DNA from: Chrysomallon squamiferum
Taxonomy: Eukaryota; Animalia; Mollusca
NCBI GenBank assembly: GCA_012295275.1
Contig: CM022670.1
Span: forward strand, 17,422,001-17,486,000
Length of the DNA: 64,000 nucleotides
Direction of reading: 5' to 3'
Below are positions 21,283 to 59,452 of the stretch, piece after piece. Position numbers and translations under genes: made by a program. Under the pieces are notes generated by a model that saw nothing but the letters and a program-made list of their open reading frames with translations, was not told the origin of the DNA and did no database searches. Positions within the stretch are counted from its first letter, which is position 1. Each line of letters starts with the position of its first letter.

Positions 21283-22004
21283 TATTATTATTATTATTAA
21301 ATAATTTCATATATACAATGTACCTTTGAAACAGTTTGTAAAATATTATATCCCAGCAATTCAAGTGTTTTATAATCAGTGGCAATTATAAAATTATCAA
21401 AAAACTTCATTTTTCTGATCTGTGCTTCAATACTAAAATAACCTCACATTTCAGATAGTAATAATTTAAAATTTAACTGGAATGGTTTATTTAATAGCAT
21501 CATTTGTAGTTTTTATTATTATTATTATTGTTGTTGTTGTTGTCTTTGTAAATAGCTGATGTTATTTAATATTTTAAAATGTTATTTTATTATTTCAATT
21601 TATTTTTTAATATTTATTGGTATTTACTCAAAGAATATTTTATATTTAGATAAAAACAGATGATCTGCCATGAAATTAAAATTTTAAAATATATTACATT
21701 AAAGTTACTGTTATCAATAATACTTCTTATTAGTCATGAAGAGAATTTTACAAAAAGTTTGTGATGTTGATGTGAGCAGACAAACTATGTAGGGGAAACA
21801 CAAACTATGGTATTGGTGCAGGAAGAAATATACTGACTGTGCAGAGAGAATAAATATTAATTTAAAAAAAGAAAAGAAAGAACAACAACAAACAAACAAA
21901 AACAAACAACAACAACAAACAGAAAACAAACAAGTTACTGATTGGTTTAGTAAGAAGCTGATAATACAGGTAAAAAAAAATGGTAGAAATAAATAGTAAA
22001 AACT

Positions 22005-22043
<39 letters not shown>

Positions 22044-22330
22044 TTTGGAATCCTTTATATGAAATATTTGGGACTGTTTCAGATTTTGTAATGCAAAGAG
22101 ATAGCCTGAAAACGAATTCCATTTATATTTCTTATACAGGTAATAGAAATAGTCTGCCGGATTTTTTATAAAACATTTTAAAATAATTCTGTGAATGAAA
22201 AAATATTTGTAAGATATCACTATTTTTGCTGCTCATAAAACGTTTTGGATTTCGTACCTTTGGATAAGGGATCCTCAGTTTGTAATAACATTCTTCTGAC
22301 ATAATTAGAAATGTTTTCTATGAAAGATAC

Positions 22331-22521
22331 CTGAATTGTCTGGAAAGTAACTGTTAACAGCAAAAGGAATAAACGAGAAGGCATCAGTTATTTCTCCGTT
22401 TAAGGCGGTTTTGAGGTCTTCCGGTGACCATTGCCTGAGCCCACTGTCTTCAAACAGACAAACCAATCCAATACATCTGGACCAGAAACGGCGGCCATCT
22501 TTTTCAAAGGATATCTTTAAA

Positions 22522-22597
<76 letters not shown>

Positions 22598-23119
22598 GAT
22601 AATAAATTTTTAAAAATTAAAAGAATTTCTAAAATTAAAAATGACTGTCACTGACACTCAACAGACTCCGAGTTTGATTAATAATCATTTAAAAATAAAT
22701 TTTCAAAAGTGTATCTCATATTATTATTATTATTATTATTATTAACCTTTCTGTATTGAACGTCTCGAAATACGAATGAAGGATTCAAATCTCTTTCAGG
22801 TGCTTTTGGCAGAATGTCGAAGACGCTTATAATTCTTTCCTGTGGTCGACGAACTTCTCTGTTCTTACGCAGAAAAATAAAACCTTTCTCGAAATATGAA
22901 GCGAATGTCGAATGGATTTTTCGTCTCACTTCTGCTAGTGTGCTTCTCGATCTGACATGAAAATGTTTACTCAGAATGGACGGTTGTTCGGTACTAATCG
23001 CCTGGAACTTGATCAGTATGTCCGGAGTTTTCTCCCTTGGAAGTGTTGGCGGTGAAGAGAAAACATACTGGCCTTTGTCATTGGTATCATTGTCCTTGGC
23101 AGAATAGTCTTTGGTAGCT
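22331..23119 (-). CDS. Two N-terminal exons of copy A (23119-22747, 22514-22331), only partly visible in the ORF track; putative ubiquitin-like beta-grasp domain
   Basis: 373-nt and 184-nt stop-free exons with AG/GT ends; phases 2-0 and 0-1 join exactly to the phase-1 acceptor at 19775 (..PDNS|DVPVDQLNC). Peptide includes DILIKFQ..SKHFHVRSRSTLAEVRRKIHSTF..GFIFLRKNREVRRPQERIISVFDILP. Confidence 0.7.
22530..22593 (+). repeat. (TA)n microsatellite
   Basis: Direct reading. Confidence 0.95.
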
Positions 23120-34941: not shown

Positions 34942-35727
34942 TTATAAATCTTCGTCATCTTCTGGGACTGCCATGTAAGAAAGTTCTGCTACATCCAAAT
35001 AATCAGAAATAAGATGAACAAAAGGATCATCTGATTTTTGTACACTGTTCACCCTAAAAAAATAATAAAATAAAATTTTATACATACATGCATACATGTT
35101 AAGTGGGTGTGTGTGATGAACATAATAAAAATAAATACAGTTAGAAACTTTTAAAAAGAGAGATATGTTTCAGAGAATTGGAACAGTTTTAATTTCTATT
35201 ACAAAATAAACTGCAATCTGTGGTTTGCAGATAAAATTTATATCAGTATGTGACATCATTTTAAAATAAATACAAGTAGTTTAATTTATATTTAACTTTT
35301 GTGTAATTTATCATCAAAAACAATTCTTACAAAACAAGACAACTGAAAAACTGCACATACCAGGAACGAGCTGTTTGTAACATCCAGTTCCTAGGTTCCT
35401 CCAGGGAAAATTCTGACAAAGCCTCTATGACTACTTGGAAAGCTTTATCATCTGATATCTGTTTATCCCTGCTAGTCACAAATAACTGAAAATAAAAACA
35501 TGTAAAATGCACAATAAAACATATATAGTTAATGTTTTTGTTACAAATTCAATAAAATTATAAATCTACCTTGATCATTTTGCTCTCAGGAGTGGAGGAC
35601 AGGGGATCAATCAGAATGAGCTCCAGTTCAGGTTTGGAAACATCAAGTTCTCTTGCCAAGTCAAAAATTACACCAGTCTTTTCAACAAGCTGTGCAATAA
35701 ACTCATCAGACATCGGCTTGGGAAGTT
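34942..35727 (-). CDS. Copy B: second, divergent death-fold unit and C-terminus (exons 35727-35570, 35485-35361, 35053-34942)
   Basis: MSDEFIAQLVEKTGVIFDLARELDVSKPELELI..ESKMIK|LFVTSRDK..AFQVVIEALSEF..W|VNSVQKSDDPF..EDDEDL*; same 1-0-2 intron phase pattern as death domain 1. Confidence 0.7.
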
Positions 35728-38700
35728 CTGAGACAAAAATAAAAAGAATTATTCAGTTTCTCTAACTATGTAACACAACAAAGTCAACAGAAAGGATACT
35801 ATTCACAATTTCTCTAACTATGTAATACAGGAAAGTCCACAGAAAGTGAATTATTCACAATTTCTCTAAATATGTAATTCAGGAAAGTCAACAGAAAGTG
35901 AATTATTCACAATTTCTCTAAATATGTAATACAGGAAAGTCAACAGAAAATGAATTATTCACAATTTCTCTAAATACATAATACACGAAAGTCAATAGAA
36001 ATTGTACAGTAATCTGTACATTTATGATTTTGATATATCTTAGAATAAATGTGACAATTATCCTACAATTTCACATTTCCATAAATACTTCAAAAATACT
36101 GCTATGTATATTTAAAAAAAAAAAAATTTTCACTGATCATAATCACTGTATATAATATTCTGTGTCAAATCACCCCCAAAAAACTACATTTTTTTAAACC
36201 AGACAGTCTCAGATTTTTATTTACTTTGTATACTTGTTGATTGGGATCCCACAGCACCAAATCCAAAATGTCAGGCCAATTGGACCAGTGGTGTTTTGAG
36301 ATTTTCGGCCAAAATGGTCATGACCACCAAACTTTGAACCCTCATATCTCAGGAACTACTGGGCCAATCTTCATGAATGCTGGGGTACACTGACCTTTTG
36401 ACCTTTGTTATGACCTTGAAATTGACCTTGATATGACCTTTCTTGAAATTTAATCTCCCACATGTTAACTAAAACGTATAAGCATTTAGAGGTGTAATAT
36501 TCTTTGTTTAGCAGCAATACACATTCAAAAATTGCATGTCCATGAAAGTAACACATTTTCTGCCATTAACATCTGATTAGCTAAAACCTGATGTTAGGAA
36601 TCACCATCTCTCTTGATCACCATGTAATACATTATAGGCCTACATGCTATGATCATATGATATCAAACTACTTCCCTCATTGCCTTCTCACTAGTTCAGC
36701 ACTCACAAAATCATTCAGTCACCCACTTCCCCCATAGTCTTGCAATTCTAGCATCATCCCTTTTATTTAGAGAGTACATACGTTGAGAAGATGCAATAGA
36801 AGGTGTATCAATGACAGAGAAGATGTCCCCTTCATTAGTCCAACACATGTCTTTTTCATTTGGCCATGCCAAAGTCTCCATGCTCTTCTGAAATGTCCTC
36901 AACTAGGCCAACCCATGCCTCATTGTCATACAGACAACAAACATAGTTTTGCTTCTTGGCTCCTCTGGTAATTCTGTCATATCATCCTCAGAATCCTGGA
37001 CAGACACTAGTTCTGGTGGGTCACTCTGCAGGCTGAGCTTGTTGGCATGCATCTTTGACTTAGACACTGGAACTAACCAGTGAAAGTGCTGTGTTCCCTT
37101 GACCGTTTTGGCCTCTTGAAACCTCCCTTGTAGTTCCAACTCATGCTTTGCTATGTTTTCTGGTGTGATGTTGAAAAAGTGAATACCTGAAATACTCTTG
37201 ATACAGAAGTCCATGTTAGCATCACTGGTCAGGACTGGGTCTGTGTAGGGACGCTGCAAACTAGCCTTTGTCAGCGACCTATTCACCATCCCCTCCCAAT
37301 TCCATCACAGGCACTTTTGCCATAGCTTGTCACAAAAAGGTTCCACTCACCTTCCAATACACAGGGCTCTAGAAACTGCTAATTGCCATAAGCTCAATGG
37401 GGATTTCACCAGGGGATCTCCTGTTAACACTTTGGGCCTGATTGTGTAGAACATCTTATGCCAATTCAGGCATTCCTTCAGACATGTCAAGTGGATTTTG
37501 ACTCCAAAGATGAGTTTTTCATCTCAGAGAAGTGTATACATGTAGAAAACGTACATTGTAATGCATTGTATAAATCATCCATGCAGGTAAGCATTTTTAA
37601 AATCTATATTGTGGCTAAACAAAAAAGATTACACCTCTGAAACTTTTATATGTTTTAGTTAACATGTAGGAGATAAAATTTCAAGAATGGTCATCTCAAG
37701 GTCAAGTGATCCACGAGGTCAATTTTGAGATTTGGAATCCTTGTCATATTGCCTTTTCAACAATACCAAGTTTTATGAAGATTGGCCCAGCAGTTGCTGA
37801 GATATGAGGGTTCGAAGTTTGGTGGTCATGCCCATTTTGGCCAAAAATCTCAAAATTCGGGTGGCCATATCTCCCACACCACTGGTCCAATTGGCCTAAA
37901 TTTTTAGATTTGTTGCTGTGGGAACGCTCATTGAAATCTGAGATGGTCAGGTTTAACCCTTTGGGTAATTTGACACAGAATGACCCAAAAGTTCAAAAAT
38001 GAAATGATCATCTATAAATTGTTAATAACTCAAATGCAGATTAGGGGTGAAGAAATTGAAAATGAAAGTAATAAAGGGGTCATCCCTATGAATACCAATT
38101 TTAGGAATATTCTGTCTGTATTAGCTAACAAATAAATAAATAAATACAAAATATTACATAAATAAATAAATAAAATAAATAAATAGATTAAAAAAGTAAA
38201 ATAAATAGATAACTAAAAATAATAAATTAATATATTAAGTATATTTCATCTAAAAATTTGAATTTGCAAATTTATTATGACAGTTGTACATGCATTACTT
38301 ATGAAATGGTTCTAATGGCTGCTGCTATTGTCACTTTATTAACTTGAAAGCATGAAGCAGATTTTTTTATTGAAGTTTGAGTAAACTTTAAGTATTACTA
38401 CAGTACAAACTTACTGAACATCAGAATATGTTCATTTAACAAGTCAACTGACATGTATATAATTGTTTTGATGTTTATGTTTTACCCAATTTAGTTATTG
38501 AACGTCCATTCAGTGTCACTTTCAGCCAACTGCAGAATCTGTCTTGTCGTTTCTTGTTTTTCCCAATCCTAAATAACAACATTAATAACTCATTTATAAT
38601 TTCTATATAGAAAGAAATATCTAATTTTTAATAACCCTAAATAAAAACATTAATAACTGATTTATAATTTCTATGCTGTAAAGAATATGTAATATTTAAT

Positions 38701-41700
38701 AATCCTAAATAACATTAATGACTCGTTTATAATTTTCATTCAGGCATATCTAATATTTAATAAAAATAATAAGCATGATATAAGATAAGGAATAACAGAG
38801 ATATGTTTCAAAATGGACATATTCATCATCTAAAACCACTGTAAATATCTATAGTTAATTCACTTCTATAATCTTGCTAATGTGTTGACTTGATTCTTTC
38901 ATTAAAAACACCTCTATCATTTCATTATACAGTATTATTACTTTTCATTATACATTATTATTATCTTTTATTATATAGTATTATTACTTTTCATTAAACA
39001 GTATCAATATTTTTCTTTATACAGTATTATTATTTTTCATTATACAGTATTATTTTTCGTTTTGCAGTATTATTATTTTTCTTTATACAGTATTGTTACC
39101 ATTCATTATATAGTATTATTATTTGTCACTGTATAGTATTATTATTTTTCATTAATGGAGGTCAGTTCCATAACTCTCAACTAGTGTTTTAAATTACAGA
39201 TAGTTTTTAAAAACTTAGAAAAATCACTATAGTTGTATTTATCAAATAATATTATTATTTGTTTATTTAATTATTTTGAAAATTTATAAAATCGGAGATT
39301 TTACCATTTTTTTAGTCTTTTCATGATTTTCTGCACTAAATCAGGTCTTCCTCCTTTCTGAAGAGCTATAAGAAGTTCTGGAACTCCGTGGTCATTTCTA
39401 TGTAATCGACTGTCTCTCCAAGATTTCAGCAACTGATTCAAAAATAATGAAATGAAAATTAAAGAGGTTGTTTTTGTATTAAAGCTGTAACTTTAATAAA
39501 ATTAGTGAAAGCAAATAGTTTTCTTTAATACTGAAGATTACAAATGATAAATTTCCAGCAACTGATTCAAAAATTACAAAACATGTATTAAAGATAATGT
39601 TCTTGTAATAAAACTTTAAAAAGATGAATAATTTTCTTTAAAACAAAAGATCTGGAGTAATGGTATACAGCATAACAGCAGAATCAAATTCTACAGTAAG
39701 GAATAAAAACTGAGTAGAAACTTGTAAATAATAAGAATATGTCAAACTGACCTTATTTCATTGTTTATTCTTACACTTTTGTAAATCAAACTTTAATTCT
39801 TTTCAGTTTCAAATGTTTCATGTCATGTCTTTTACAGTGGCATTTAAAATAGTCAGAACTGTTAGAATAATATTTAACGATACAACACAAAATTATCTGT
39901 TTTAGTTATCAAAAGCTGACTGATACAAATGAGTAGTTCAACATGTTAACTGACTCTGTATCTCTGATTTTCTATAGTTTCTTCCTCGTCCTTCATTTTC
40001 AGAGATGTTTCTGAAAATCCCAACTGTACTGCAACACGCTGCCATTCAGAACCCAGGTCTTGAGCCAAATCCTTCAGCAGTTTTTCATTTGTGAACCCTT
40101 TCAAAACAAGAGAACAACTTTGTGAAAGAATCAGAGAGAGGGTCAGGCAGAGAGACAGACATACAGATATTTGTAAACCCTTTCAAAACAAGAGAACAAC
40201 ACTGTGAAAGAATCCGACAGAGAGTCAGTCAGACAGAAGAAATTAATATTTTACAATATATAAATTCTTTTAGACTATATCTATCATATTTCCTGTTTGT
40301 AGAAACAAAGAAGTATATTGATGTCTTCCATGTTTTATTAATTACAGATGAAGCCTAATAATATGTAGATTTAAAGAAGGGTGTTTTGTATGTAAAAATT
40401 AAAATATGCATACTACAAAGATCAAAAATTATTTGAATTATTAATAGTGGCACAACATGTCTTCATAGTGCACCAAAAAAAAAAAACCCAGACAGTCCTA
40501 CACCAGTTTAAACATGCAGTCTATTTTACCTTCAAATGTCTTTTCCTCTTCAATATTTTCATTGTCTGATGTATTTATTGCTTCGTTTTCACTTCTGTGA
40601 ATCTGGATAAAATGTAGCAATATTTGCGCCACAGTTTCATAAGTTGGATTGTCCTCAAACTCCTTCTGAGGATCTTCCATTTTCTTTGCAATATCCACAT
40701 ACCCATCTTTGTCATCATCCACAATGACAGGCAGCTTGAGCACATTTTGTCTTTTAGGATGATACTGTAATTTTGTTAGTGTTTGTTTTTCTTTCAGAGC
40801 ACTTCCAACTATGTTGATTTTAAACTCTTGTTTTGGAAATATGGTCAATTCTGTTGTATAGCTTGGCTTCTGATCTTTGTAACCTTCATTTTTCCAGTGT
40901 TGAAGACGTTTATGTAACTGCTTGTTTCTGGTGCATTCTACAACTACTTCTCCATTATTGGTGTCAGAAACATTCTTCAACATGGCCATAAAAACAACAC
41001 TGCACTGACGATGTTTGGCTTTATCCAGCAGCTCAGAATTTAACTTGATGACTTCTTTTTGTATTTCTTCTTCATCTTTCTTCTGCTCAATTTCTGATTT
41101 TGAGTAGTCTGTCACTAATTTTTTATATTCTATTAAATTGAATCTGGAAAATATTTTTAAAAAGTAACTATCTATGGAAAAAAGAACATATATATTTTCC
41201 AAATGTATGGTTTACATATTCATTATTTTAAAACATGTATTTCGTTTTTAACTGATGAGATTCATATAGGAATGCATATTTGTATCAATAAAATTATATG
41301 ACAGAAGAATAAATGTAATAAAACATTAAACATTTTTTTTCAAATTCAAAGGGTGCAGAGAAAAAAACAGTTTCAATTGATATAAAAGTGTCAGTTTAAA
41401 AAAAAGAAAAAGAAATACGGTATCTTCACTGATATTTATTTTAAGTATTTTTTCAATAATGTATGTAGTCTTTATGATACTCACTCTGAGAAATGCTGCA
41501 TGTGCACACTGACTCTATCATTATCAATGGGAGGATTTTTATGAAGGATTTCCCAAAAATCTTCATTTTCACTATCAACTTGCTCATGGCAAGCCATCAC
41601 ATATAGGTCACCTTTTCCAAAGAAGTCATTAGGCAGCCCAACTGTTATAATCACCTCTTTGTTTGGCTGTTCTCCAGCAGAATGGCTAATATCAAAAAAA

Positions 41701-43811
41701 TTGGATAACGAGAGCACGTTGTCAAATCTGTCTTCTTCAAGAGGTGGTTTTGGAATTACCTACAGGAGAAAGTAAAGATAATGATAATTTCACAGCTATG
41801 AATTATGATTTATTTTAATATTTCTAAATCTTATTTACAGATTTAAATAAAAGAAGAAGAAAAGAAATTAATATAAAAAATAATGTTACCAGGTTGATAT
41901 TTTAGACAAGCATAACAATAACTAAATTGATAGACATATCAGATCCATAATAATAAAATTTCTTGTGCTGTATTTTAATTTTCACCAGTGATGAATTTTT
42001 CTAAATTTATAATGTTTGTAGGTGTAATTTCTTTTCTTTCAAAATTGTTGTTAGCTATGAAACATGTCTACCTCGAAGTTAAGATGTCCATGTTTCTCAA
42101 ACGTTTCTGGTTTGACAAAAATGTCCACTGCTGCCATATTTGATGAGAAAGTTCCACCAACTGCTGTGACTGGAAACTTTTCTGTTATTGGTAAAGTCAC
42201 CAAAACAAAGGAATTCATTGAACAAGGATTGATTTTAGCATAGCACACCCACTGATCCTTTAAACAGAAAAATGTTAATAAAATGAACAACAATAGTAAT
42301 GATAATAATAGAAGTAGTACTAGTAGTAGTAGTAGTAGTAGTAGTAGTAATAGTATGAATAGCAACAAACTCAACAAGAACAATAGCAATAATAATACTA
42401 TAATAACAATTATAAATAAATAAATAAATGCTGGTTTTTTGTCACAAAAACCATCAAAAATACATATTAAAAAGAAAAATATGACAGAAAAAGAGGTACA
42501 ATTAGAGAACTTGATTGTAGATAATAATTATACATATAAATAAACAGAAAAAGAAATAAATACATAACCTTTTTAACTTCTCTAATATCCTTCAGCTTTC
42601 CAATGTATTCCTGTCTGTCTGTTTTCATGTAAACCTCTTCGAATCTTTCTCGCTTGGAGTAAACTGGTATTTTCAGAATAAAGTCATCTGACACATCAGT
42701 TGTAAAGATTCGAAACTCAAAAACGTCACTCATGATGAGTTCTCTGTCAGTTGGAAGCATGTCATTTCTGCTGTATTCAGGCCGCATTCGTCTCCACACC
42801 ATACCAACTGGCTTACTCCCCAATGATGTCTGAGTTCTTATTGTTAGTCCAATCTGATGAAGGTCATAGGTCATGTTTCCTTTAAGAGTTACAAACTCTG
42901 TCTGTATGTAGCTAAAAACACAAATATAAACTAATTAACATTTAGTATAAATTAATAAGCATAAGTATGAACTGATGAATCTAAGTATATACTAATAAAT
43001 ATAAATACATACTAATAAACATAAGTATAAACTAATAAACATAAGAATATACTAATGAAGATAAGTATAAACCAATAAAGATAAACTAATAAAGGCAAGC
43101 ATAAACTAATAATCATAACTAATAAACATAGTATATACTGAAAAACAGAATTATAAACTAATGAACATAAGTATATACTAATAAAGATAAGCAAAAACTA
43201 ATAAACATAAGTATAAACTGATAAACATAAGTATATACTAATAAAGATAAATATAAACTAATAAACTTAAGTATAAACTAATAAAGATGAGTATGAACTA
43301 CTGAAGTCAACAATGCTGTTTCTAATCTTGATGAAGAAATATTGACATTTCAACAAGTTATGCAGATAGGTTTCAGGTCAAATGCCACATTTATTAATTT
43401 ATAATATTACAAAAACAAAATTTCCTGACCTATTCAAGTTTCAAAACTTATTCTAGGATACAGCATATTCTGTTGAATATGTACTGGCTGCACTAAACTG
43501 AAACTGAATTGGTCTAACCCTTTGTCAATGAATTGTTTGTTTTTAAAATGAGGATTTTTCATGCTTTACCTTGAAATATTTCATGTAGTTTGTAAAAATA
43601 AAAGAGATTAATAGTAGTGACAAACAAATATTTTATGACAAAATTTCAATCATTCGGCTCATATTATGTTATTGTTTTAGTTTTTCCTTACTTTTTTTGT
43701 TGTTGTTACAATATTAAAATAATAAAATATTCAGATATATTTGCCTGGATATTGTATCACTCTCTCTGTAAATATACGTACTTATCTGTAAATCTAAACA
43801 TCTCTCTCTCT

Positions 43812-43858
<47 letters not shown>

Positions 43859-44686
43859 ACATATAAAAAATTACCCATTTTCAATGCCTTGTGAAATAAC
43901 CTTGGATTCCTTCATCAAACTGCGCATTTTTGGATTTCTGCAGCTAGAAGCTGGACTCTGATTTTCCTAGAGAATTAATTTCATTGATTAATTAATTTCT
44001 ATATGGCATGTTATACTGAAAGTCTGCCCTGAATTATGCCTTAAAATTAAATTCAAGCCAATTTTTCTCTCAATATACAAATTAAAAGTTCTCTTTCAAA
44101 AAAAAAAAAAAAAAGAAACATATTTTTTCTCTGAGATCTGAAATGTTAAAAATACTTTCTATAATTATTATGGTAGTAATAATTAAAGTTAAAAAAATTA
44201 ATAAATAAACAAAATAATGTGTGACCTCTGAGAAACAAAAGAAAGGAAAAAAATAATAAAATTTTTTAATATAATCCTCTTCCCACCAGTGACAAATGAA
44301 AAAATAGTGTAGTAAAAATAAATAATGTGGGTGTTACAAATACATAAGAAATGAAATAAAGAAGACAATTACCTTGTCTAGAATTGTTCCATCAGCTCCA
44401 CAGAAGGTAAGAAGATCAGCTGCTTCCCATTTGGATTTATTAACTGCATAGTGAAGTGGTGTTCGTCCATACTGAAAGTGAAGACAACATGTAGATTCCT
44501 TGTAATTTTTAATAGTTATTTAAAACCAGGCATGACATTTCAAACTAACAATAAACCAATCAGCTTTAATTTCTATTTTATTTTTCCTATCATATTATTA
44601 TATATATATATATCAACTGTGTGTGTGTGAGTGTGTTTTTATGTATAAGTTGTGTTTTTGTTTTTGTATTTATTTGTATATGTCTT

Positions 44687-44730
<44 letters not shown>

Positions 44731-45056
44731 GATACAGATAAGAACATCAGACTTACTTTGTCTCTGATATTTAGTTTGGCTTTGTTTCTTAGAAGAAGTT
44801 TCAGACTTTCCATGTCACCATAGGCAGATATATAATGCAGCGGAGTCCGATGAAGCTGTTATATATAAATAATATATATATTTTTTTCATTTTTCTTGTT
44901 TTTTTCTGTTTTCTGTTACTGTTTTGTCTTCAACAGCTCTCATCTATCTGACTGTTATCTAATATCTTTTTTACATTTTTAATATTTTATGTTATCTGTC
45001 TGTGAAAGGAAAATAAAGCCAAATCAAGATTAGGTAATTACTTAAAACAATACTAC

Positions 45057-45087
<31 letters not shown>

Positions 45088-48000: not shown

Positions 48001-51000
48001 ATCTCCATGTCTATAAATATTTTATCAAAATCCAGTCCATCAATCTGCCAGTCACCATTCATTGATTTTATTACTTTAAGGCAAATTGTTAAAATCCTAT
48101 TCTTGTAGAAAATATCTGATATATCCTTTGGTGAAACAGCTAGGATCTTAATTTGAACCACATCCATTTCAAACCACAGCAAATATTTATATGCCACAGC
48201 AATCAGTTTAATGACAGGTCTAACTTTCTTTCTGAAAAAGGAATCTATGGGTTGCAAAACACCAGCTTTTTCAAATGATTGCAGATCAATATCTAGTTCT
48301 AACTGATTGTAAGGAGATTTATCTGAGACACCCACAAGACAATCAGCAGTCATGCAGAAAACAGCAGCACATATTCTAAATGACTCATATACTGGGAAAA
48401 GAGATTTTTTATAATATGGATAAAAATCTTTCAGTGTGAAGTACCAGAAAATTCTGCTATCATCTGATGACAGGCCGATCTTTTTATCTGTAGGTAACAT
48501 GTCAACATATTTGACAACTATGTTTTTAATGGCAGATACTAAACCAATAGCTTTCTTCACAGCAGCTTCACCACCAACAGCTTCAATGTTTTCAAGAAGA
48601 AAACCTGACTGGAGAATTGTTGATTCAAGTCCACCAAGTATGTATCCATCATGTTTTCCTGCTAGAGTGAGAAAGATGTTCTCTCTGTGTTGTCTGTCTT
48701 TGGCAGAATCAAGTGATCCCCAATCAATTTCCACTTTAATATTTTGTCCCTTCAACAGATCCATTATCTGTTAAAAAGAGAAATATATTAAAATAAAGAC
48801 CACAATAACAATCAGTATTTAATCTATCTGCATCAACTCTTCAAAGTGCTAAAACTTATTCAATAAATCATTTATTAACCAGTTGTGGAAATAACTGTAA
48901 TGATGTAAATTGTACTTACTCGTTTTTCAAGTTCAGGAATGGATTCCTCTATTTCTGTTTTCAGAGATTCTTCTTGTGAAAGTTCAACAGGAATCTCAGC
49001 TGTGTCAACAACAAGGTTTCCTCTGTTGCCATCACTCAGCCTCAGACACACTTTATCATGTAATTCATTACCAAGCACTTTCATCTGTGGCTCTTGAGAA
49101 GATTCGTCTTCTACACAAGATACAATCAGTGTTGTGATAAATTTCCACTGAGATGACTCTAAGTTTATTTCTTGCTGATACCTGCCTATTACCAGTTTGG
49201 AGAGTATTACTGAATAAAGCCAAATCCCTTGTATGCCATACTTGTTACCTGCAGCTTCAAAGCTTTTTATGTCAATTCTTAACTCCTTTTCCATAAAATG
49301 ACTTGGTAAAAATGATTTCTCTGTCACTTCTACATCTTCCAGAACTTGTCTGAAGTGATCATCTGGCTTCATGCAGAGCAGTGCTTCTGCCTGTGACACT
49401 CTCTCAGTCTGGTTTATTATGGAACTAATCCACTCCTCATCTCCAGGATGTGAAAGACCAATGCACCATCTTATGGACAATGGTAAAGTATCTCCTAGTT
49501 CTGTCAGCGTTTTAACTTGTTCTGAATCTGTGTAAATATTTAATTCTTCAATTACCTTCACAGCATGAAGATTTCCAAAACCAAATGCTATGTCCAAAGC
49601 AGAAGGTGATAATGGTTTACTAAGTACATCAGTTTCAGTGATGATAGCAGAAAACAAGGTTGTGTTGTGACCAGCAATTGCTTGTAAACATAATTCAGCA
49701 GTCACAGATGCTAGTATTTCTTTGTTGTTTCTAAACAAGTAAGATGTTGCTGAATCAAAACCATACTGTAAAGTTTTATATATCAGCTCTGTGATACCGT
49801 TTGGCTTTGATGCATTGTGTATGATAAATATCTGGGCAACAGCAACAGATGATTGATATCCCATTGCTGTTAATCCAATATCTAAGACATCTGATGTATG
49901 ACACATCTCAGACCAAGCAAGGTGATTTATTAATGGATGAGTAAAAGTTCCTCTGCCATCAGGAACATATGTAAGCATAAAGTTTTCTCTTTTCTTGAAA
50001 TCACGGACAGATATATTATTACGTGTGTCACAGCTTGATGAAAGCATTTTTGACCAACCAATGCATCTGTCAAGTAAACAGTCAATGCAGGAAAGATCAG
50101 TCTCAGTGTGTGATGCATGTTCTGCAGTGTCCAGCTCAACACCTTTCAACAAGTCTGGAAGGATAGAATGATGACCAAATGCAACACACAAAGCTGCTGG
50201 AATGTAGTTATTCTTGTCATGTTTCAAGAAAAGTTGATCTTCAGCTTTTTCTGTAATGAGTCTACAGATTTCCTTATTGCCTGCCAGTGCAACATGATGC
50301 AATATTGTCTCACCAGTATCTGAAACCCAGTCTAAGCACTGGTCTTCATCAAAAAGTATCTTCACACATTCCACCTGATGGTTTTCAATGGCACAGACAA
50401 TTGGTATTTTACCCTTCTGGGAGGACCTGCGAGTCCATGCTGTCATATTGTCAGTAGAATATTTCTGTATTAGCTTCAGTAAATGGAGGAGAGATTTCTC
50501 ACATCCAGTTATTGCACAAAGATGAAGAAGTGGATAAAATGAATAAGACATTTTTATGGTGTTAACAATGGTTTCTCCACCTACTTCAAGTACTGCGCAA
50601 GCACCACTGTCATCCTTCATTGCCAGAAGATGTGGGAGATCTATGTCTGTCCAAAATCTTGAAAATGTTACTTTTTCATAACTCATCAATAAATATTTCT
50701 TTCTGTGTTTTTTCCTCATTTTCCTGAAATCATCCAGCACTGTAATATCTTTTGGCATAAAGACTTGTTCATGTCTTGGTAGTTTTGCATTGTTGTTGAG
50801 AGCCAGTTTAAACCACCCTGTCTGATTTAGATCCCTACTTTTCTTTTGCTTCAAATCCATTTTTCCCATTTCTTCTAACAAGTGTACTAGTTCAATGTTT
50901 CCCATAGATCGAGCAATATCAAATGGTGTCAAACCTGTACTGTCAGTACTTTTCACAGCTTCTTTCTGAAGTCCGAGGACTCCTTCAGCTACCTGTTTCA

Positions 51001-54000
51001 TGTTAAACAGGCAGGCATAATGCAATGTACTCATATGAAAGGAGTCTGTTTTCAAAACATCAAGAATCCTGTTTGACATCAAGTACATACAGACTGATTC
51101 ATTTCCATGTTTTGCAGCCACTAGAAGAAGATCCTCAAAAAATCTCTTTGTTGAAAAACGAGAATAACCTTTTGACTTTAGAATTGTCTCTAGAACCTGA
51201 GTGTTGGACACGGTTGCTGCAGAGTAAAGACAACTTGTGCTTGGAGTTTCATTTTGATCTGTCAAAACTTGTAAACAAAACTCAATTATATTTAAATTTC
51301 CACTGATAACTGCACAATCAATAGCAGATTTGGGATTTCGTCTTGATGGAATGTTGTTCACAACTGCATGTAATGAAACACCCTCATTTACCAAATACTG
51401 AGCAAGTTCTTTATTGCCATGTAAGCAGCACACACACAGGAGAGTCTGCAGCAATGTGCGAAACTGATCTTTCATTGGGACATCCGTCTGAGACAGTCCT
51501 TTCCTCATCCACTCAATAAGCATCTCTGCATTTTGACCCAAACCAAATTTTCCAATGTTCATCAAGTGCTGACTCCATGGTTCAATTTCACCAATGTTGA
51601 TGTCTTTTTTGTTATTATCTTGTATCACTATGTCAAGCATTGGAAACAGGTTCTGTTTAATAGCTTTCTTCAAAACAGTTTTTTCTAAAATCATTGTTAT
51701 ATGGCTGCTAGCCAGTTCTAGCATCTTAGCTCTTTCCAGTAAATCACTATCTTTGTTTTCGCCTGGATTATACTTTGCAAATACAAAGAGGAGATCTATA
51801 ACAGTAAGGCATTTTGTGATTTTTCTTGAGTACAAATCAGCACATCTATGGAAATCATTAATAAACTGCATAGTCCAAGACTGACCAACAAGTGCACAAG
51901 TGACAAGGAAAATGTCTGTAACTGGACCAATTTTTTCTCTGAAAATTAGTCTTGCCAAATTTTCTATATCTGTTTTATCCATCACATTAACATTAGAAGT
52001 GAACAGAATTTTATTGGCAAGAAAAAAATCTTTTGACATTTTATCTGAAAGGTGTTTCAACTCAGTTTTTATTTCTTCATTGAATTTTTTGTTTTGTTTA
52101 TGTATTTCTCTGATGATGTTTGAAATGCCATAGCATTCACATATGCAGACAGCAAAGGCATCAAACAGCTGTGGTTCATTTTTTAAAAACAGCTTCTTTT
52201 TTATGCAGAGCTGTACTGCCTGCAATTGACTGTTTGCTACAGCAAACACCAGAGGTGAATGAAATTGGCACAATTCTGAAATTGATTGATATGTAGACAT
52301 CTGCAACAAATATTCCATTAATTCTACATTTCCATGTGCTGCAGCTGCATGAACCATAGTAGATGATGTTTTAACACTGAATTTCAACAGGCTCAGTAAA
52401 TATTGAACCTTTTTTCTCAAAGCTACAGTCTGTGTGTCTTCTTCTGATTTCATTTGTGTAATTGTAATCTGTGGAGTCAATGATTTTGTTACCTGTTTTG
52501 GTGGGTGGAGGTAAATATTAAATGTTTTACTGTGTGGAGATATGAGAGAAGCAATTTGACGAGAATCACTTCGTTTCCAATTGTTCCTGCTTGCATTCAC
52601 AAGTCTCCTGGTTTCACCTTCTTTCTTACGAATGATAAACTTCCGTTTAGGTTTCCAATCTGGTACAGGTCTGCTATGAAGCCCTCCACCACTAAGAATT
52701 AGATTTTCTGCAATATTCCAATGTTGATTTGCCATTGCATACCACAGAGGTGTAGCACCAGATTTATCTTTCATATTGAGAATGGTTTTTACTGATTTGT
52801 ATCCATTTTCACCAAGTTTTGAAAGAATGAGAATCATTGTTTGAGATTTTCCTTTTTGACACAGGTAATGGATGGCTGTCATGTTGTGAATGTCTGAATA
52901 CGACATTTGATCTGCCAGCTTTGTGCACATTTCAGAGTTTTCCAAGAGGACATTCAACAAAGAATTCACTATATCATCATTTCTTACTCTGCACACAGAT
53001 GTCAACATTTCTCCATCTCCATTTTTCATGACATCCAGAATGTCAGATTTGTACTTACTCAGTAACAGGGTACCCAGTGTACTAGGTGCTTCAGTAATCA
53101 GTTTGATAAGTTCTCTGTAACATAATTATTTTATTTAAATTCAGTAATATGTCTTCTAAATTAAAATATTATTTTCAAAAATGTGAAACACTCAGACACC
53201 CACCATTACACTTATACACATATACATATGTACACAAACACACTGACATCCACATGCACATTCAATTATAGCTATGTTTCTTAAACCAATTTTATGGTTA
53301 AAAACAATTTACATAATCTGAATTATTAATACAATATCTAGTTATAATAGTATTTATTTATCCTTCTCAGTCTGGGATAATCTTTGTAACAGATGTTTAT
53401 AATGACTAGCAAAGTTAAAATGAAAGATTAAATTTAGAAGAAACAACTTACTTTGGATGTGACTTCATGTGTTTGATATAGTTCGTTTTTCAACAAGTAC
53501 TCCACTATTTGCCAGTATTTTTTGGTTACTGCCATTTTAAATACAGTTCCATTGTCTCTGTGGTCTGCCCAAAAAATCTCTTTGGAGCTAAATTTTAAAA
53601 ATATATATTTTTAAAATAAATTAATAAATATAATTATCAAAATGTTTTGATTTATGTATTAATCCTGAAGTATGTAAAATATCTGAGATCATTTTATGAA
53701 TATTTCTATAGTTGAATAATGATAATTTTAATAATTAGGACTAGGAGTAATGAAAATAATAGGAATAATAATAACTATAATGACAAGAAGAACAACAAAA
53801 ACAATAACAATAACAATAATAATAATCATAATAATAACAATAACTGCATTAGCATAAATTAATTGTTTACTTACTATTAAAATAGGAAGAAAAAGAATAA
53901 GTTAATTTTTGTTTCTTTTTATAAAAAATTGATTCATTAATTGTGTACTAGATAAAGGCAGAACTTAATATATTGACAGTAAAAAAAAATCAGTGTATGA

Positions 54001-57000
54001 ACATTTGTATAATTCAATAATAATAATTATATTTAACACTAAGAGTAATGAAAATAATAGCAATAATAATAATAATAGTAATAATAATAATAATGACAAC
54101 AGTAATAATGATGATAATAATAATAACAATAATAATAACTGCATTAGAATAAATCATTTGTTCACTTACGATTAAGATAGGAAAAAACAGATAACGTTAA
54201 TTTTGTTTCTTTAAACGAAAATATTAATGGTGTACAAGATAAAGGCAGAACTTGGCGTCTTTACATTAAAACAAATATCAGTGTTTCTACATAGATCTGG
54301 ACCCAGATTCAAAAAACCTCATCAAATCTGGCTGCTTTCTAAACCACTCTAATTTCAGTATATGCAAACATTTTTTGATGGCTACTAGTTTACGTTGCTT
54401 GATGTATCCTGAACTGATCAGGAGAATATTAATTTACAGTCACATAGCTTAACTCAGTATGAACCATAGTAAACATAGTAAGCAGCTAAATTTGGAACAT
54501 TTAATTGAATCTGGACCCTGATTTGCAAATACCTTGATTCAAGCTTTTTCAGAATTGTAAGTTTTCCTTTTTCCCCTTGTGTTGGAGTAACACTTTTTAT
54601 GTATGGCATCTCTAGATAAGAAAAAATAGTGTTTACACTAGATTTCTAATTTTAAAGCAACATAAATTTCTTCAATGTACTTAAATAGAAGATCAAAAGA
54701 ATACACACGCAAGCACACAAACATACAAAATAAATAAATAAATCAATGTGGTTAAGTTTAGAAATAACAAATTAATAAAAATAATGAATTATTTTAGATT
54801 CAAAAAGTAAACATTTTCAAAAAATGTGCCAGTAATACTCTTTGTTAGACAAAATCTTCTGCACGTGTAATGTTTAAATTTATATTTACCAAATTTGGAA
54901 AGCATTATTATTGGCTACAATTATCTTTTATTTATATGTACTGTAAACAATAGGTTTCTAGTGTATGTGATAGAGAACCTAACGAAACTGGCAGGCTTTC
55001 TAACTTGCAGCTGGGAGTGTCTTGCTTCCACATTCTGGTAAAATAAGGACTGCAGGAAGCAAGTATTTGTTCCCAGAGAATGGACAGTTTAATTTCAATG
55101 ACTGACATGTTAACAGTTGATTACTTACTTAAAAATTGTTTTCCACAACATGCAGCATTTAAAGTCTGTTGTCCTAGAGTATGGCCATGTTGTAAAAACA
55201 GATCAACCATCTTGATATTCCCAGCTGCAGCAGCTATGGAGAGTGGAGTGACATCATCTTTTCCTCTGCAGTCTACTGGTAGTGCATCAACAGCAGACAG
55301 ACATGATTCTGCCAAATCATAGTCTCCAACGGCAGAAGCAAACTGTAGAATGGAAATTTCCATTTTTTTAATGTATTCTAAATCTGTGGTTGACAGTTTG
55401 CTTAGAGTTGTTATCAAACTAGCTTCTTTTGTGCTTTTCTGAAGAATCTGACAAGCTCTTCTTGCTCTTAAATTATAATTTGATTTAAAGATTTTGGCTC
55501 TTTCAGATCTGTTTTGAGTCATGATCCAGGTACATAAATACTGGTGTATCATTAGTATGTATTTGGTAAACAATCTGGGAAAAATATAAAGAAGTTTAGA
55601 GGCCATTACATGTTGCATTTTTGTACTTGACTTTGTGAAATGATGCCAGGCTATTTGTTGCAGAATATCTAATGCAGTAGTTTTTCTTTCATGTGTTGTG
55701 CTGATTTCCATAATGATTTTCTCCATGTCCCCAATGTCAACTGTTTTCAAAAATGTATGCCCTTCTTGAAAGAAATATATTTGTATTTCCAGTGGTGCAG
55801 ATTGGAAGAATGATTGCCAGAATGCAGACAAAATTGGCAGTGGCACTTTCTGGTACTGAAAATAGACATGTTTGTGACAAGGTGTATTTGCTGAAAGCAA
55901 ACAGTTCCACATCACTGATCCTCCATGGCGAAGAAGCATGATTACTACTTTCCACAGCTTGTTTTGTACAGCACTGATAAAAGCTTGACAAACGCAGTGT
56001 ACAGAACTGTGCTTGGTAATCTGGGTATCTGCTAGATGAACCCCAGTTTCAATAAGTTGACAGACAACAGCTTCCATACTCTCTTCATACTGTGAAATAT
56101 TCTGTATAAAGTGTGTTAAAGGAAGCATTGATTCAAGTCTGAAGGTAAATGTGTTAACAGGTGAATCTACAGCATTTAGAAGTTGTCTGGTTTCACTGAC
56201 CATCTTCTGCGTCAACAATGACTTTGACTGCAACAGTTCTGGACAAAGTCTTATCATGACAGAAAACAATTCCTTACTTTTGTGTGGACTGTTGACTGCA
56301 GCCTGAAACACTCCTTTAGCACACACACGAGCGTGCTCATCAGCAGGACATGTACTTTCCAGTGACTGTGATTTCCAGTGACTTATCACAGTACTCAGTA
56401 TTTCTGTATTTCCTTTCCAAACAGCTAAGTGCAGTGCAAAACATATTAAAGTGGAGGCCTTATTGCTTAACAGAACATCAACTAAACTTTCATTTTCTTT
56501 TAAAACAGCTAATTCTAAAGCTGAATGGACCAAAAGATGTTTTTCTTTTTCAGAAAAAGATAAATCTTTGTACTTTTCAAGATCTGTTGGTATATAGTTT
56601 GGTGATGCACCCATTTCAATCAGCTGCTTCACAGTATTAGCTTGTTTTGTTTTATCTTTGTCACTAAATGTCTCATTTAAAATGGCCACCTGCAGGAGAA
56701 CATCAAGTTGTTCTTGTGTAAAAGTATAACAGTTATCCAGTGAAATGAGAGATTTCTCAGACCAGTATTTAGCAGCAACAATAGCAGCAGATTTGAATTC
56801 TTTCTGAAAAATATCTGGTAGGTAGACAGCAATTTTGTGAATTAATTCTGGTCTGTCATGCATTATTAGCTGACGAAGCAATGACACATCATCACTTTGA
56901 ACTGAAGAAAACCTCTGAAAAGGTTGTGTTATGATGTGGGATATAGAAACATTATTTTCTTTACTCAATGTAACCAATTTACCTTCTTCATTTCCAACTC

Positions 57001-59452
57001 GACAATAATGGACTTTCCTGAAATATAAAATTTGTCTAATTAGCTTGGAAATATAAAATATAAATATGCTTTCCAGAACCGTGACAGATAGAGGTGAGAA
57101 GTATACAAAACCACTGGGAGTAATTATTAGTAACTTAAAATTTAATGTCTTTTGTAATGTTTTCTTTATAAGAGAATAAAATATGTAATTATCATTTATT
57201 TGTATATATGCAAATAAGAAGAAAAAATATAAATTATTTATAGTTTATACTGGTTAATCAAAGTCTGTTTAAATATGAATTAATCACCAAATAAATAAAT
57301 TAAATAAAAAGGTCATTTACCTCTGTCTGTTCCCAAATTCTGTCCAAGTCTTGCTACATACTCTACACTTCTTAAGTGTAGCAGTAATAGAATTCTTTTT
57401 TGGTTTTCTAATCACTGGAGAAGCAGTGTCATGAGTGATCTGAACTGAAGAAAACCTCTGAAAAGGTTGTGTTATGATCTGGCATATAACAAAACTATCT
57501 TCTTTATTCAACGTAACCAATTTACCTTCTTCATTTCCAACTCGACAATAATGGATGTTCCTGAAATATAAAATATTAGCTTGGAAATATAAAATATAAA
57601 TATATTTTCTAGAACTGTGACAGGTAGAAGTGAGTGGTGTACAAAACCACTGGGAGTAATCATCAGTAACTTCAAATTTAATGTCAAATAAAATATCAAA
57701 TATATAGACAGTAATTATCATTTATATATATGGAAAACTATATATATTCAGTTACAATTTATACAGGTTAATTAAAGTTTATTTGAATATGAATTAATCA
57801 TCAAATAAATAAATTAAATAGAAAGGTCATTTACCTCTGTCGGTTCCCAAATTCTGTCCAAGTCTTGCTACATACTGTACACTTCTTAAGTGTAGCAGTA
57901 ATAGAATTCGTTTTTGGTTTTCTAATCACTGGACAAGGGGAGTCAGGACTGATCTGAGACCAGTCTGACCAAATTTCTGTAAGATTGACCACTTGAGAGT
58001 TTTTCTCTTCTTTAGCACTAATAATGGGTTGTTCCGAGATTGTTGAAATCCTTTTTATTAGTGATTCTGCAGTTTTCTCATGTAAAAGTGGAATATAGTA
58101 TAGCAAGGTATGACCACTGACATCAGCTGCTTTAGGATTCATTTGTTCCAAATGGTTTTGAATAAGATAGTCCATTAGTTTATCATGTTTCCTTTTTGCT
58201 GCTACCATAATGGGAGTCCTTCCACTTGAATCTTGAAGTGCTGGATTGATACTGTCACACTTCAGTAATAACATGACAGTTTTCTGATGACCTAAATAAC
58301 ATGCATAATGCAGTGGTGTGGACTTTTGCCAGTCCCCTATATTCGGATTAGCTCCTTTCTCCAGCAGCATCTTTACAGATTCATCATGATTTGACTGGAC
58401 AGCTTCGTGCAATGCTGTTCTGCCCATGAAATCTTTCAGATCAATTTCAACTCCTTGGTCAAGTAACCATTTCATCATTTCTGTATCACCATGATATGCT
58501 GCTTGTGAAAGAAATCTATTGAGCAAATGTTTTTCATTTTTCAAAAAAGGAATATAATACATTGCAAGATTTGAAAAATCTGATTCTGCTTCTTTAATCA
58601 GCAATTCTTTTGTTGTATTTGTGATCTGAAAGGTTTCTCTCAAAGTTGGCAATAGCTTCAGAACTTCATATCTCTTCCATGACACTGCCAAATGAATCCC
58701 CTTGACAAAATCATCATTGGTCATATTTTTAAAGTAAAGTAATGGAATAACATTGGTATGCCCATGCTGGCAAGCGTAATGGAAAGGCAGATGTCCATCA
58801 GGGTCTTTGTCCCCTTGATCTTGAGCTGATGTGATAGTTTTATTATCATCTGTTGACTTCTGTTCAGACATATTTTCTTTTAACAGAATCTTGATGATTT
58901 CTTCTTCACCTAATTCTGCTGCCAAATGAAGTGGAGGTCTGTAAAATGAACTCTCAAAAGGAACGACATGCTGACAGTAGATTTTTGCTAATTGTTTCAT
59001 TTTTAACTGAATTGTGTAGCAGGTGAAATGTAAGACAAGGGTTTCATCAAGAAGACCAGGATCAAGTCTAGATAAAATATACAAGGTGGATTTATTACTC
59101 AGAGTGTAAAGAATTTGTCTACAGCTGAGTCCATGTACATCCTGACAGTCCAAATCAGGATCAAGTTGTAAAAGGTAAACGACCACATCCAGTTTGTTAA
59201 AATTAAGAGCACAGTGCAGTGGTGTGCGCTTATTCATATCTTTCATGTAAATCAGAGATCGTCCAAACTGACCAATCAACAATTCACAGACATCCAGCTG
59301 ACCTGACTGTGCAGCATAGTGTAGAGGTGTGGCCTGTCGGTAATCTCTCAACGTACGAGCATCTGCCTCATTTGGAAGTTTGTGTAGAATATCACGAAGA
59401 ATTGCAGTATCTCCTCGAGAAGCAGCACAGTTCAACTGATCTACTGGAACAT
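34942..59452 (-). CDS. Copy B: giant ankyrin-ZU5-ZU5-UPA-death-death (PIDD1/DTHD1-like C-terminus) gene; 22 coding exons in window, 5' exons beyond 64000
   Basis: Exons with GT-AG ends: 59452-57835, 57560-57321, 57017-55129, 54611-54533, 53587-53452, 53114-48920, 48767-46277, 45908-45797, 45312-45214, 44855-44757, 44471-44373, 43966-43875, 42911-42569, 42257-42072, 41759-41485, 41143-40530, 40097-39955, 39432-39305, 38568-38486, 35727-35570, 35485-35361, 35053-34942 (TAA). About 13.3 kb coding (about 4,440 aa). Phases are compatible throughout apart from two frameshifts (about 53470 and about 47950). Confidence 0.85.
35746..36001 (+). repeat. 52-bp minisatellite, about 5 copies, next to a splice acceptor
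   Basis: Unit gaattattcacaatttctctaaatatgtaatacaggaaagtcaacagaaagt (starts at 35848 and 35900, among others). Confidence 0.9.
36157..37986 (-). mobile_element. Decayed, internally deleted Sola2-type DNA transposon in an intron of copy B
   Basis: Imperfect TIRs of about 340 bp (36157-36498 and 37628-37986; right end ..gacacagaatgaccc). Frameshifted transposase remnant EWNLFVTSYGKSACDGIG..VNRSLTKASLQRP..RFQEAKTVKGTQHFH matches the Sola2 HGKxxCDGxGG region. Confidence 0.8.
38486..40097 (-). CDS. Copy B: death domain 1 (exons 40097-39955, 39432-39305, 38568-38486)
   Basis: LLKDLAQDLGSEWQRVAVQLGFSE..ENQRYR|LLKSWRDS..GVPELLIALQKGGRPDLVQKI is a canonical death-domain pattern. Confidence 0.88.
38565..38760 (+). 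repeat. 68-bp tandem repeat x3 containing the acceptor of exon 38568
   Basis: cctaaataa..cattaataactc/gatttataattt at 68-bp spacing. Confidence 0.8.
38920..39153 (+). repeat. About 23-bp minisatellite, about 10 copies
   Basis: Unit ttttcattatacagtattatta(c/t). Confidence 0.85.
40530..41143 (-). CDS. Copy B exon: UPA-like domain
   Basis: VVFMAMLK..EVVVEC..EGY..PS..F.INIVG..LQYHPKRQN resembles the PIDD1/DTHD1 UPA pattern; 614 nt, phase 2-1. Confidence 0.75.
41485..42911 (-). CDS. Copy B: three exons encoding tandem ZU5-like domains ending in HFS
   Basis: ..DRELIMSDVFEFRI..FILKIPVY..; FPVTAVGGTFSS..VDIFVKPETF; LSLSNFFDISH..VIITVGLP..FWEIL..VSVHMQHFS(E). Confidence 0.78.
42925..43300 (+). repeat. 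About 20-bp minisatellite (shorter counterpart at 3455-3645 in copy A)
   Basis: Unit aataaacataagtataaact. Confidence 0.85.
43875..45908 (-). CDS. Copy B: five small ankyrin exons (112, 99, 99, 99, 92 nt)
   Basis: One 33-aa repeat per 99-nt exon with phase-0 introns. Confidence 0.85.
46277..48767 (-). CDS. Copy B exon: alpha/beta repeat region with a -1 frameshift at about 47948-47952
   Basis: ORFs 47913..48764 and 46216..47880; cagccTTTTTactc here versus cagccTTTTTcactc in copy A. Confidence 0.85.
48920..53114 (-). CDS. Copy B 4195-nt exon: long ankyrin solenoid and start of the alpha/beta repeat region
   Basis: Uninterrupted 1384-aa ORF with many ankyrin motifs. Confidence 0.92.
53452..54611 (-). 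CDS. Copy B small exons 54611-54533 (79 nt) and 53587-53452 (136 nt, 2 nt shorter than in copy A)
   Basis: Homologous to 14895-14817 and 14187-14050; the 136-nt length breaks phase with the acceptor at 53114. Confidence 0.7.
55129..57017 (-). CDS. Copy B exon: degenerate ankyrin repeats
   Basis: ORF 55121..56977; acceptor at 57018-57019, donor at 55127-55128. Confidence 0.9.
57321..57560 (-). CDS. Copy B 240-nt chimeric duplicated exon
   Basis: NIHYCRVGNEEGK..FSSVQ joined to ITHDTASPVIRKPK..CRVCSKTWTEFGNRQR; phase 2-2. Confidence 0.8.
57835..59452 (-). CDS. Copy B exon: canonical ankyrin repeats plus first half of the CxxC motif
   Basis: ORF 57831..59435: ATPLHYAAQSG, RTPLHCAL, GRTALHEAV, STPLHYACYLG. 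Confidence 0.9.

Follow-up and report, generated by a model that had tools for sequence, protein, structure and literature searches.

A giant ankyrin and death-domain gene of Chrysomallon squamiferum with counterparts in other gastropods and a predicted self-cleavage site

The stretch of DNA analysed here, referred to as the window, comprises 64,000 nt of the genome of the mollusc Chrysomallon squamiferum (GenBank assembly GCA_012295275.1, contig CM022670.1, positions 17,422,001 to 17,486,000); window positions are used throughout. It is AT-rich (GC about 30%), and the minus strand carries all its long reading frames, grouped in two blocks that match each other. One of these, copy A, is a gene of 22 exons running from 59452 to a stop at 34942, which encodes most of a giant protein with a long, partly ankyrin-type front part and a ZU5-ZU5-UPA tail that ends in two death domains (DD1 and DD2); the other, copy B, is a tandem paralogue (Table 1). 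All 22 acceptors of copy A are AG and all 21 donors are GT. Once two frame breaks are bridged, the in-window model has 4,438 residues; read through directly, it terminates at residue 1,327. The start codon lies beyond the window, the first in-window exon (acceptor at 59452) requiring an upstream partner exon. Two N-terminal exons were seen for copy B only (23118-22747 and 22514-22332; 58 and 47% identical, respectively, to the start of the Haliotis protein described below). Because such exons outside the window would contribute about 180 residues, the full length comes to about 4,600 aa, the size proposed in a first-pass annotation made from the letters of this DNA.

At its first frame break, near 53475, copy A lacks 2 nt that copy B and the RNA have, and at the second, near 47950, it lacks 1 nt. 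Reads from four of five public runs were compared (three RNA runs from a single study and one run, with no type recorded, from another study) over 39250-53400, that is 14,151 of the 24,511 bases, with the exons above 53400 outside that range. An extra T at 47947 was present at full depth in all four runs and restores the frame at the second break, and in two of the three RNA runs the exon at 53114 is spliced to an exon whose end extends 2 nt beyond the window version and keeps the frame. Both breaks are assembly errors or private alleles. The splice joints 48920/48767, 46277/45908, 45797/45312, and 39955/39432 were each present in all three RNA runs. A 2,350-nt RNA contig contained the UPA exon and both DD1 exons; its flanks measure 1,004 nt upstream (995 predicted by the exon model) and 463 nt downstream (478 predicted), a comparison of lengths only. 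An isoform with one death domain, ending at the stop after 39305, was considered and rejected, as an RNA contig splices onward to 38568. Thus, the single spliced reading frame claimed earlier stands as far as GT-AG exons and RNA joints are concerned, although the window sequence as assembled breaks it twice; the alternative that the front part and the tail belong to separate genes is opposed by the joint 46277/45908, which links the front part to the first exon of the unit of four ankyrin repeats (ANK4) and tail in each RNA run.

Table 1. Features of copy A, in order of transcription, followed by copy B and an intronic insert
Feature	Positions	Strand	Remarks
Exon, 1,618 nt; first ankyrin block, CxxC motif at end	57835..59452	-	43% identity to Haliotis residues 179-745
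240-nt exon, phase 2-2; local duplication of both neighbouring exon ends, none in Haliotis	57321..57560	-	
Exon, 1,889 nt; helical and degenerate ankyrin region	55129..57017	-	
Small exon, 79 nt	54533..54611	-	Splice phase fits; found in copy B too
Small exon, 136 nt; 2 nt short near 53475	53452..53587	-	RNA loose end at 53114, 2 of 3 RNA runs
Giant exon, 4,195 nt; degenerate ankyrin blocks, then first alpha/beta module	48920..53114	-	
Giant exon, 2,491 nt; repeated alpha/beta modules without known family; 1 nt short near 47950	46277..48767	-	
First exon of the ANK4-ZU5-ZU5-UPA-DD-DD unit	45797..45908	-	Joint to 46277 in 3 of 3 RNA runs
Three 99-nt ankyrin exons (45312-45214, 44855-44757, 44471-44373)	44373..45312	-	Joint 45797/45312 in 3 of 3 RNA runs
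Linker exon	43875..43966	-	
ZU5-1 (exons 42911-42569, 42257-42072); last strand without cleavage motif	42072..42911	-	
ZU5-2 exon, ending in His-Phe-Ser (41495-41487), the predicted self-cleavage site	41485..41759	-	
Last ZU5-2 strand, helix, and UPA domain	40530..41143	-	One RNA contig with the DD1 exons, 2 RNA runs
Death domain 1 (exons 40097-39955, 39432-39305)	39305..40097	-	Pfam Death in orthologues; joint in 3 of 3 RNA runs
Linker exon between death folds	38486..38568	-	RNA loose end matches 38538-38567 exactly
Death fold 2 and stop (exons 35727-35570, 35485-35361, 35053-34942)	34942..35727	-	52% identity to Haliotis
Copy B, tandem paralogue; 19 in-window exons including two N-terminal; leaves window inside DD1	1..23118	-	
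Transposon-like insert in the intron before death fold 2; inverted ends of about 300 bp, 73% alike	36247..37923	.	

The fold of the tail was predicted on the Haliotis asinina orthologue, whose tail is about 50% identical to that of the window, using 53 rows chosen by coverage, some of them near-duplicates. The model (predicted local distance difference test (pLDDT) 89.4) comprises ZU5-ZU5-UPA and two death folds. A Foldseek search with it returned ankyrin-B ZU5-ZU5-UPA-DD (4d8o) first (E 1.6e-22, 15% identity), followed by UNC5B (3g5b, E 4e-7) and then NLRP1 (7crw, E 5e-5). With VIA, the PIDD death domain was placed on DD1 (Z 13.5, root-mean-square deviation (rmsd) 1.7, 94 aligned), the CARD8 UPA (7jn7) on the UPA domain (Z 10.8), and the THOC1/p84 death domain on death fold 2 (Z 9.5, rmsd 5.3, 107 aligned); ZU5-2 was matched by GAIN domains (Z about 8), and 7crv, of the NLRP1/CARD8 type, matched the ZU5-UPA fold with Z 11.5. 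The best PDB sequence match to DD1 was also the PIDD1 death domain (E 3e-4, the GF..L lead-in included), and an Atlas structure search with a Solemya short form of the family placed three clusters of leucine-rich repeat (LRR)-ZU5-Death, or PIDD1-type, proteins on top (TM about 0.4). Pfam scans of family members found ankyrin repeats and one Death domain, with ZU5, UPA, and the second death fold undetected in every member scanned; for this reason, those three domains rest on the predicted model. When the family alignment served as a profile against the PDB, ankyrin matches dominated the results. The ZU5-ZU5-UPA-DD-DD tail that had been read from the letters alone is therefore recovered by fold prediction, Foldseek, and VIA. 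The two death folds taken together (tail model residues 472-686; window 35361-40097) also align to the tandem death-effector domains of caspase-8/cFLIP and vFLIP (Z 8.4-8.6, rmsd 3.5-4.4, 154-163 aligned), values within the chance range for helical bundles.

By its position in the tail model, the His-Phe-Ser motif at 41495-41487 falls in the turn before the last ZU5-2 strand, and it was found after ZU5-2 only; an HFS site had been noted in the first-pass annotation. PIDD, CARD8, and NLRP1 are cut at the same place, just before the last ZU5 strand (PMC3210808). Across the family, HF[S/C/T] was present at the ZU5-2 site in 29 of the 44 rows having letters there, and at the aligned ZU5-1 site in 0 of 41; one PIDD-like row carries the ZU5-1 motif three columns off the aligned site. 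A cut at this position would be predicted to yield a UPA-DD-DD product of 455 residues and 53 kDa. Two death folds are retained from bivalves to gastropods.

Proteins of the same overall build were found in other gastropods. The H. asinina protein XP_067677725 (4,604 aa) is colinear with the window model at 33.6% identity over 4,629 columns, with 22-38% identity over most front blocks and 47-53% in the tail. The nearest named protein is a partial model from Gigantopelta aegis (XP_041360010), at 54% over 2,487 columns, and Patella caerulea has the fused form at 4,289 aa (KAK6188909). Fused giants, one locus each, were found in H. asinina, H. cracherodii, H. rufescens, P. caerulea, and G. aegis (the remaining accessions being XP_071117328 and XP_048255801), and none has been characterised. 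The gene had been presented as lineage-specific, which a colinear giant locus in each of five named gastropod species does not support. A HMMER search with the tail gave 116 matches; among 20 looked up, 19 were identified, all from molluscs and either uncharacterised or named for ankyrin repeats only. Most of these relatives are short (700-1,250 aa), with the order ANK4-ZU5-ZU5-UPA-DD(-DD), and occur several to a genome (e.g. XP_033738069 in Pecten). The multi-copy family in molluscs is the short form, and the giant form has one locus in each of the five named species. Many short bivalve proteins start with Met where the 45908 exon of the window starts. In Mytilus californianus, XP_052097446 (4,037 aa) matches the front part only and has a different end sequence; available data suggest that this front-half gene and a Mytilus short form lie on the same chromosome. 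A shared chromosome within a species was likewise suggested for the family members P0001/P0137, P0131/P0152, P0002/P0141 (P0002 being the Mytilus front-half gene), P0009/P0144, and P0012/P0161. A word search with the UPA exon among proteins of 357-2,000 aa returned nothing, the closest relatives being longer and the short forms too distant for the method.

A tree was built from the ZU5-ZU5-UPA region of 38 rows, with H. rufescens, short fragments, and most unnamed matches left out. The five giants included, that of the window among them, occupied one side of a branch (100/99), a clustering equalled in 0 of 500 shuffles, and were nested among the short forms; their branching order, Patella, (Haliotis, (Gigantopelta, window)), follows the species grouping. 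Because the short forms start at the ANK4 exon of the window and Mytilus has the front half alone, an old fusion is likely, in which a giant ankyrin and alpha/beta gene would have been joined to a short mollusc ANK4-ZU5-ZU5-UPA-DD-DD gene to give the giant. One such event in a gastropod ancestor is the simplest reading, and the direction, fusion, is very likely; the alternative may be fission in bivalves. We infer that the joint 46277/45908 is the fusion point.

The front part, of about 3,550 aa, is only partly ankyrin and is not a single repeat array. Its order is a 170-aa N-terminal domain, a well-formed ankyrin block, a CxxC..HxC motif, helical stretches with degenerate ankyrin, and alpha/beta modules, the last recurring over about 1,000 aa before the ANK4 unit. 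A home-made profile detected 14 ankyrin units at 2 bits or more, with none in shuffled and reversed controls, and Pfam added further degenerate blocks. The first-pass annotation had pictured repeats over about 3,700 aa where PIDD1 has LRRs; it is instead the four-repeat ANK block that holds the LRR position, and the rest resembles a separate older gene that was fused. The N-terminal domain is among the best-conserved parts (44-58%), being 44-50% identical from Haliotis to Mytilus and Patella, and gave no Pfam or PDB match; by eye only, its copy B version (window 22332-23118) is ubiquitin-like in appearance. The alpha/beta region gave no Pfam or PDB sequence match. A model of this region from Gigantopelta was weak (941 residues, pLDDT 54), and Foldseek on it found nothing at E 0.001; the best VIA match had Z 6.4, and several zincins at Z 4.0-4.3 stood at background level. 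Given so weak a model, these searches point neither to a known fold nor to a new one. The HExxH zinc motif was absent from the window model and from the Gigantopelta, Patella, and Mytilus proteins, and the one instance in Haliotis lies outside this region. A reading of the modules as decoy proteases is a lead only. Altogether, conserved domains for which no family or solved fold was found amount to about 1,200 residues.

Two smaller elements of the front part were also noted. CxxC-x(~13)-HxC (about 57835-57885 and the start of the next exon) resembles a small zinc finger and is shared by the window, Haliotis, Patella, and Mytilus. The 240-nt in-phase exon present in both copies (57321-57560 and 17613-17847) is built from the start of the next exon and the end of the previous one, repeats the CxxC..HxC motif, could be skipped without a frame shift, and is absent from Haliotis.

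Copy B exons are 84-99% identical to those of copy A, with a synonymous divergence (dS) of 0.087 and a nonsynonymous-to-synonymous ratio (dN/dS) of 0.49; some intron-rich stretches are only about 79-83% alike between the copies. In the assembled sequence, copy B is interrupted by a stop at 19584, has lost 28 and 78 nt in two deletions, shows three 1-nt shifts, and reads YLS where copy A reads HFS. The 1-nt shifts could be assembly errors like those of copy A, the remaining lesions being unlikely to be so, and copy B is likely a recent decaying duplicate. Two tandem paralogues are therefore present as first described, one of them damaged and without the motif; the copy number for C. squamiferum refers to the window only. 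Evolution by birth and death, which the first-pass annotation had also proposed, does not fit a tree that follows the species grouping and a tandem partner of this kind.

Around the two copies, 23201-34900, 59501-64000, and the long intron gave no match among the retrieved proteins. The intronic insert at 36247-37923 has higher GC and short broken frames, and no Pfam family was found in it above threshold. Local direct or tandem duplications of 100-280 bp were seen in non-coding DNA at 31952-32509, 33676-33976, 35746-36004, and 59594-60482. Upstream of copy B (about 26400-28400 and 30535-31570) lies a CpG-richer stretch with CRE-like GACGTCA motifs, and two exon-like pieces bounded by AG/GT match no retrieved protein; by eye, these are possibly promoter and untranslated exons.

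PIDD1, NLRP1, and CARD8 act through a self-cleaved ZU5 module and release of the C-terminal piece. Taken as a whole, we lean towards a reading in which the locus encodes a conserved gastropod-type fusion of about 4,600 residues that is self-cut once, the freed UPA-DD-DD piece nucleating a death-domain complex. On folding of ZU5-2, the Ser would attack the Phe-Ser bond, giving a single self-cut at His-Phe/Ser, after which the last strand would hold both pieces together; a signal acting on the front part would then free UPA-DD-DD to seed a death-domain assembly, with cell-death or NF-kB-type signalling as the output. By analogy with the three proteins named, cleavage at HF/S is likely, and signalling through death-domain assembly is fairly probable. 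That the piece is freed when the front part unfolds or is degraded, the route taken by NLRP1 and CARD8, is possible by the same analogy, though doubtful. Because the giant is conserved as a single locus, a fixed cellular cue, as for PIDD1, is suggested more than a variable pathogen ligand.

Several observations weigh against this reading. The fold evidence comes from the Haliotis orthologue and not from the spliced protein of the window itself, the FADD death domain (Z 13.0) ties with that of PIDD (13.5) on DD1, and an Atlas feature search puts ankyrins first. The first PIDD1 cleavage site is absent, and, according to a preprint, the second PIDD1 cut is inefficient when the first site is mutated (bioRxiv 10.1101/2025.06.23.660994). 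The Patella model reads QFI at the ZU5-2 site and ends after DD1 without DD2; therefore, unless that model is wrong, cleavage is not common to all giants. At the positions equivalent to PIDD1 Y814/R815 (numbering counted from E783 and checked against Q863), the window has ET, Gigantopelta DR, Haliotis GA, and Patella SE; these residues of PIDD1 are tied to RAIDD binding (PMC4977500, PMC7791037). The tree was midpoint-rooted and without a true PIDD1 row, and the front-half protein of Mytilus may come from an annotation that split one gene. No single RNA contig covers the whole message, and among the 40 read differences displayed (of 554 in total), 16 have the copy-B base. Gene conversion was considered as the source of these bases, and private variants or errors in copy A of the window explain many of them equally well.

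Some of the same points would favour a structural or trafficking scaffold, comparable with ankyrins or with the scaffold proteins MACC1 and SH3BP4, in which the tail would be a binding platform and any cleavage mere maturation. Ankyrins are the best match both for the whole-tail fold and in the Atlas feature search, each species has a single conserved locus, and the motif and the RAIDD-binding residues are lost in the Patella model and in the giants, respectively. We nevertheless consider this reading unlikely, given the lack of DARGG, the 13-16% identity to the ankyrin ZZU, four adjacent repeats against 24, HF[S/C/T] in the 29 of 44 family rows, and the retention of both death folds from bivalves to gastropods. 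A fast-evolving innate immune receptor family in a tandem array, with the repeats as variable pathogen sensor, would account for the two tandem copies, for the multi-copy short forms in molluscs, for a front part less conserved than the tail over most blocks, and for RNA runs that are recorded as metatranscriptomic; it is quite improbable in view of one giant locus in each of the five named species, the lesions and lost motif of copy B, the dN/dS between the copies (a single pair, intact against broken), and ankyrin units that are degenerate and not a uniform variable array. Least probable of all is that the giant model runs together two adjacent genes, by read-through or mis-joining, or that the tandem pair arises from two assembled haplotypes: bivalves do have both halves as separate models, frame errors show the assembly to be imperfect, and copy-B bases occur in the reads, but all three RNA runs show the fusion joint spliced cleanly at GT-AG and in frame, with no stop before it, four independent public models contain both halves from the N-terminus on, the copies differ by the dS and intron divergence given above, and long RNA contigs are about 99% like copy A, without the 28-nt deletion of copy B.

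The self-cleaving fusion remains the reading that we favour, and it bears on how caspase-2 might be engaged in molluscs. The architecture, which the first-pass annotation did not recognise, was not found described in molluscs in the titles and abstracts searched; subscription papers were mostly outside that scope, and the supplements of PMC8195603, PMC11463336, and PMC5135030 could list such proteins. The giant fusion, within a mollusc family of ankyrin-headed PIDD1-like proteins, is real and apparently undescribed. A lophotrochozoan genome survey finds CRADD and caspase-2 in molluscs and no PIDD (PMC11463336), whereas automatically annotated PIDD homologues appear in lists for clams and oysters in two other papers (PMC7836458, PMC8917759); what acts upstream of mollusc caspase-2 is for this reason unsettled. 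Although the present family shares the fold and cleavage motif of PIDD1, it lacks LRRs and its ZU5 and UPA domains go undetected by Pfam, so that such surveys could pass it over. It supplies named, testable candidates for that upstream position, among which the short bivalve forms are the better ones, and the giant form adds a datable domain fusion. Tyr is found at the Y814 position in six of the seven DD1-bearing rows of the nearest bivalve group (P0136, P0009, P0010, P0011, P0012, and P0130), Pecten having the exact YR; since the giants have not retained it, the short bivalve forms would be, by sequence, better candidates than the giants for CRADD binding. We also put forward, as an improbable speculation, that the ANK-ZU5-ZU5(HF/S)-UPA-DD-DD family may fill the vacant place of activator upstream of CRADD and caspase-2 in molluscs, as the equivalent of PIDD1 with an ankyrin head. 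In one gastropod line, the giant front part (N-terminal domain and protease-like decoy modules) would have been added by fusion as a tripwire, whose damage would lead to degradation and a freed tandem death-domain fragment, after the manner of NLRP1 and CARD8. Among marine invertebrates, ZU5-UPA-DD tails are often joined to heads of various kinds, so that the find is less surprising than it might seem.

By their defining features, the giant is not a member of PIDD1, ankyrin, or NLRP1/CARD8. That it is not a canonical ankyrin, and that its tail is PIDD1- and FIIND-like, had both been proposed from the letters, and both hold. With ankyrins, it shares ankyrin repeats directly before ZU5-ZU5-UPA-DD, the best whole-tail fold match, and very long exons; it differs in having four repeats adjoining ZU5, with the other blocks scattered or degenerate, in place of 24 contiguous ones, in its HF/S site, and in its two death folds. 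The DARGG motif of ZU5-1, which is linked to spectrin binding, was absent in four of four giants and present in fish ankyrin-3 (row P0007). The long exons of the mollusc gene lie upstream of the ANK4 block, whereas those of ankyrin adjoin the death domain (PMC5135030). In common with the FIIND of NLRP1 and CARD8, the giant has the ZU5-UPA fold and a predicted cut leaving UPA plus a death fold, although with two ZU5 domains, HF/S and not SF/S, and death domains instead of a CARD; a Pfam scan and motif check of the gene model found no NACHT family, Walker A, or LRR. UNC5B, DTHD1, and UNC5CL, the last of which is reportedly self-cleaving, have the same ZU5-UPA-DD supramodule, and a DTHD1 cluster was among the Atlas structure rows; unlike them, the giant has no membrane anchor and carries an ankyrin front and tandem death folds. 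PIDD1 itself is LRR-ZU5-ZU5-UPA-DD, with HF/S at S446 and S588. The giant differs from it in having ankyrin in place of the LRR, HF/S after ZU5-2 only, a second death fold, the 3,550-aa front part, and no Y814/R815, and resembles it in the ZU5-ZU5-UPA-DD order, in HF/S at the second site, and in the death domain that best matches its own in sequence.

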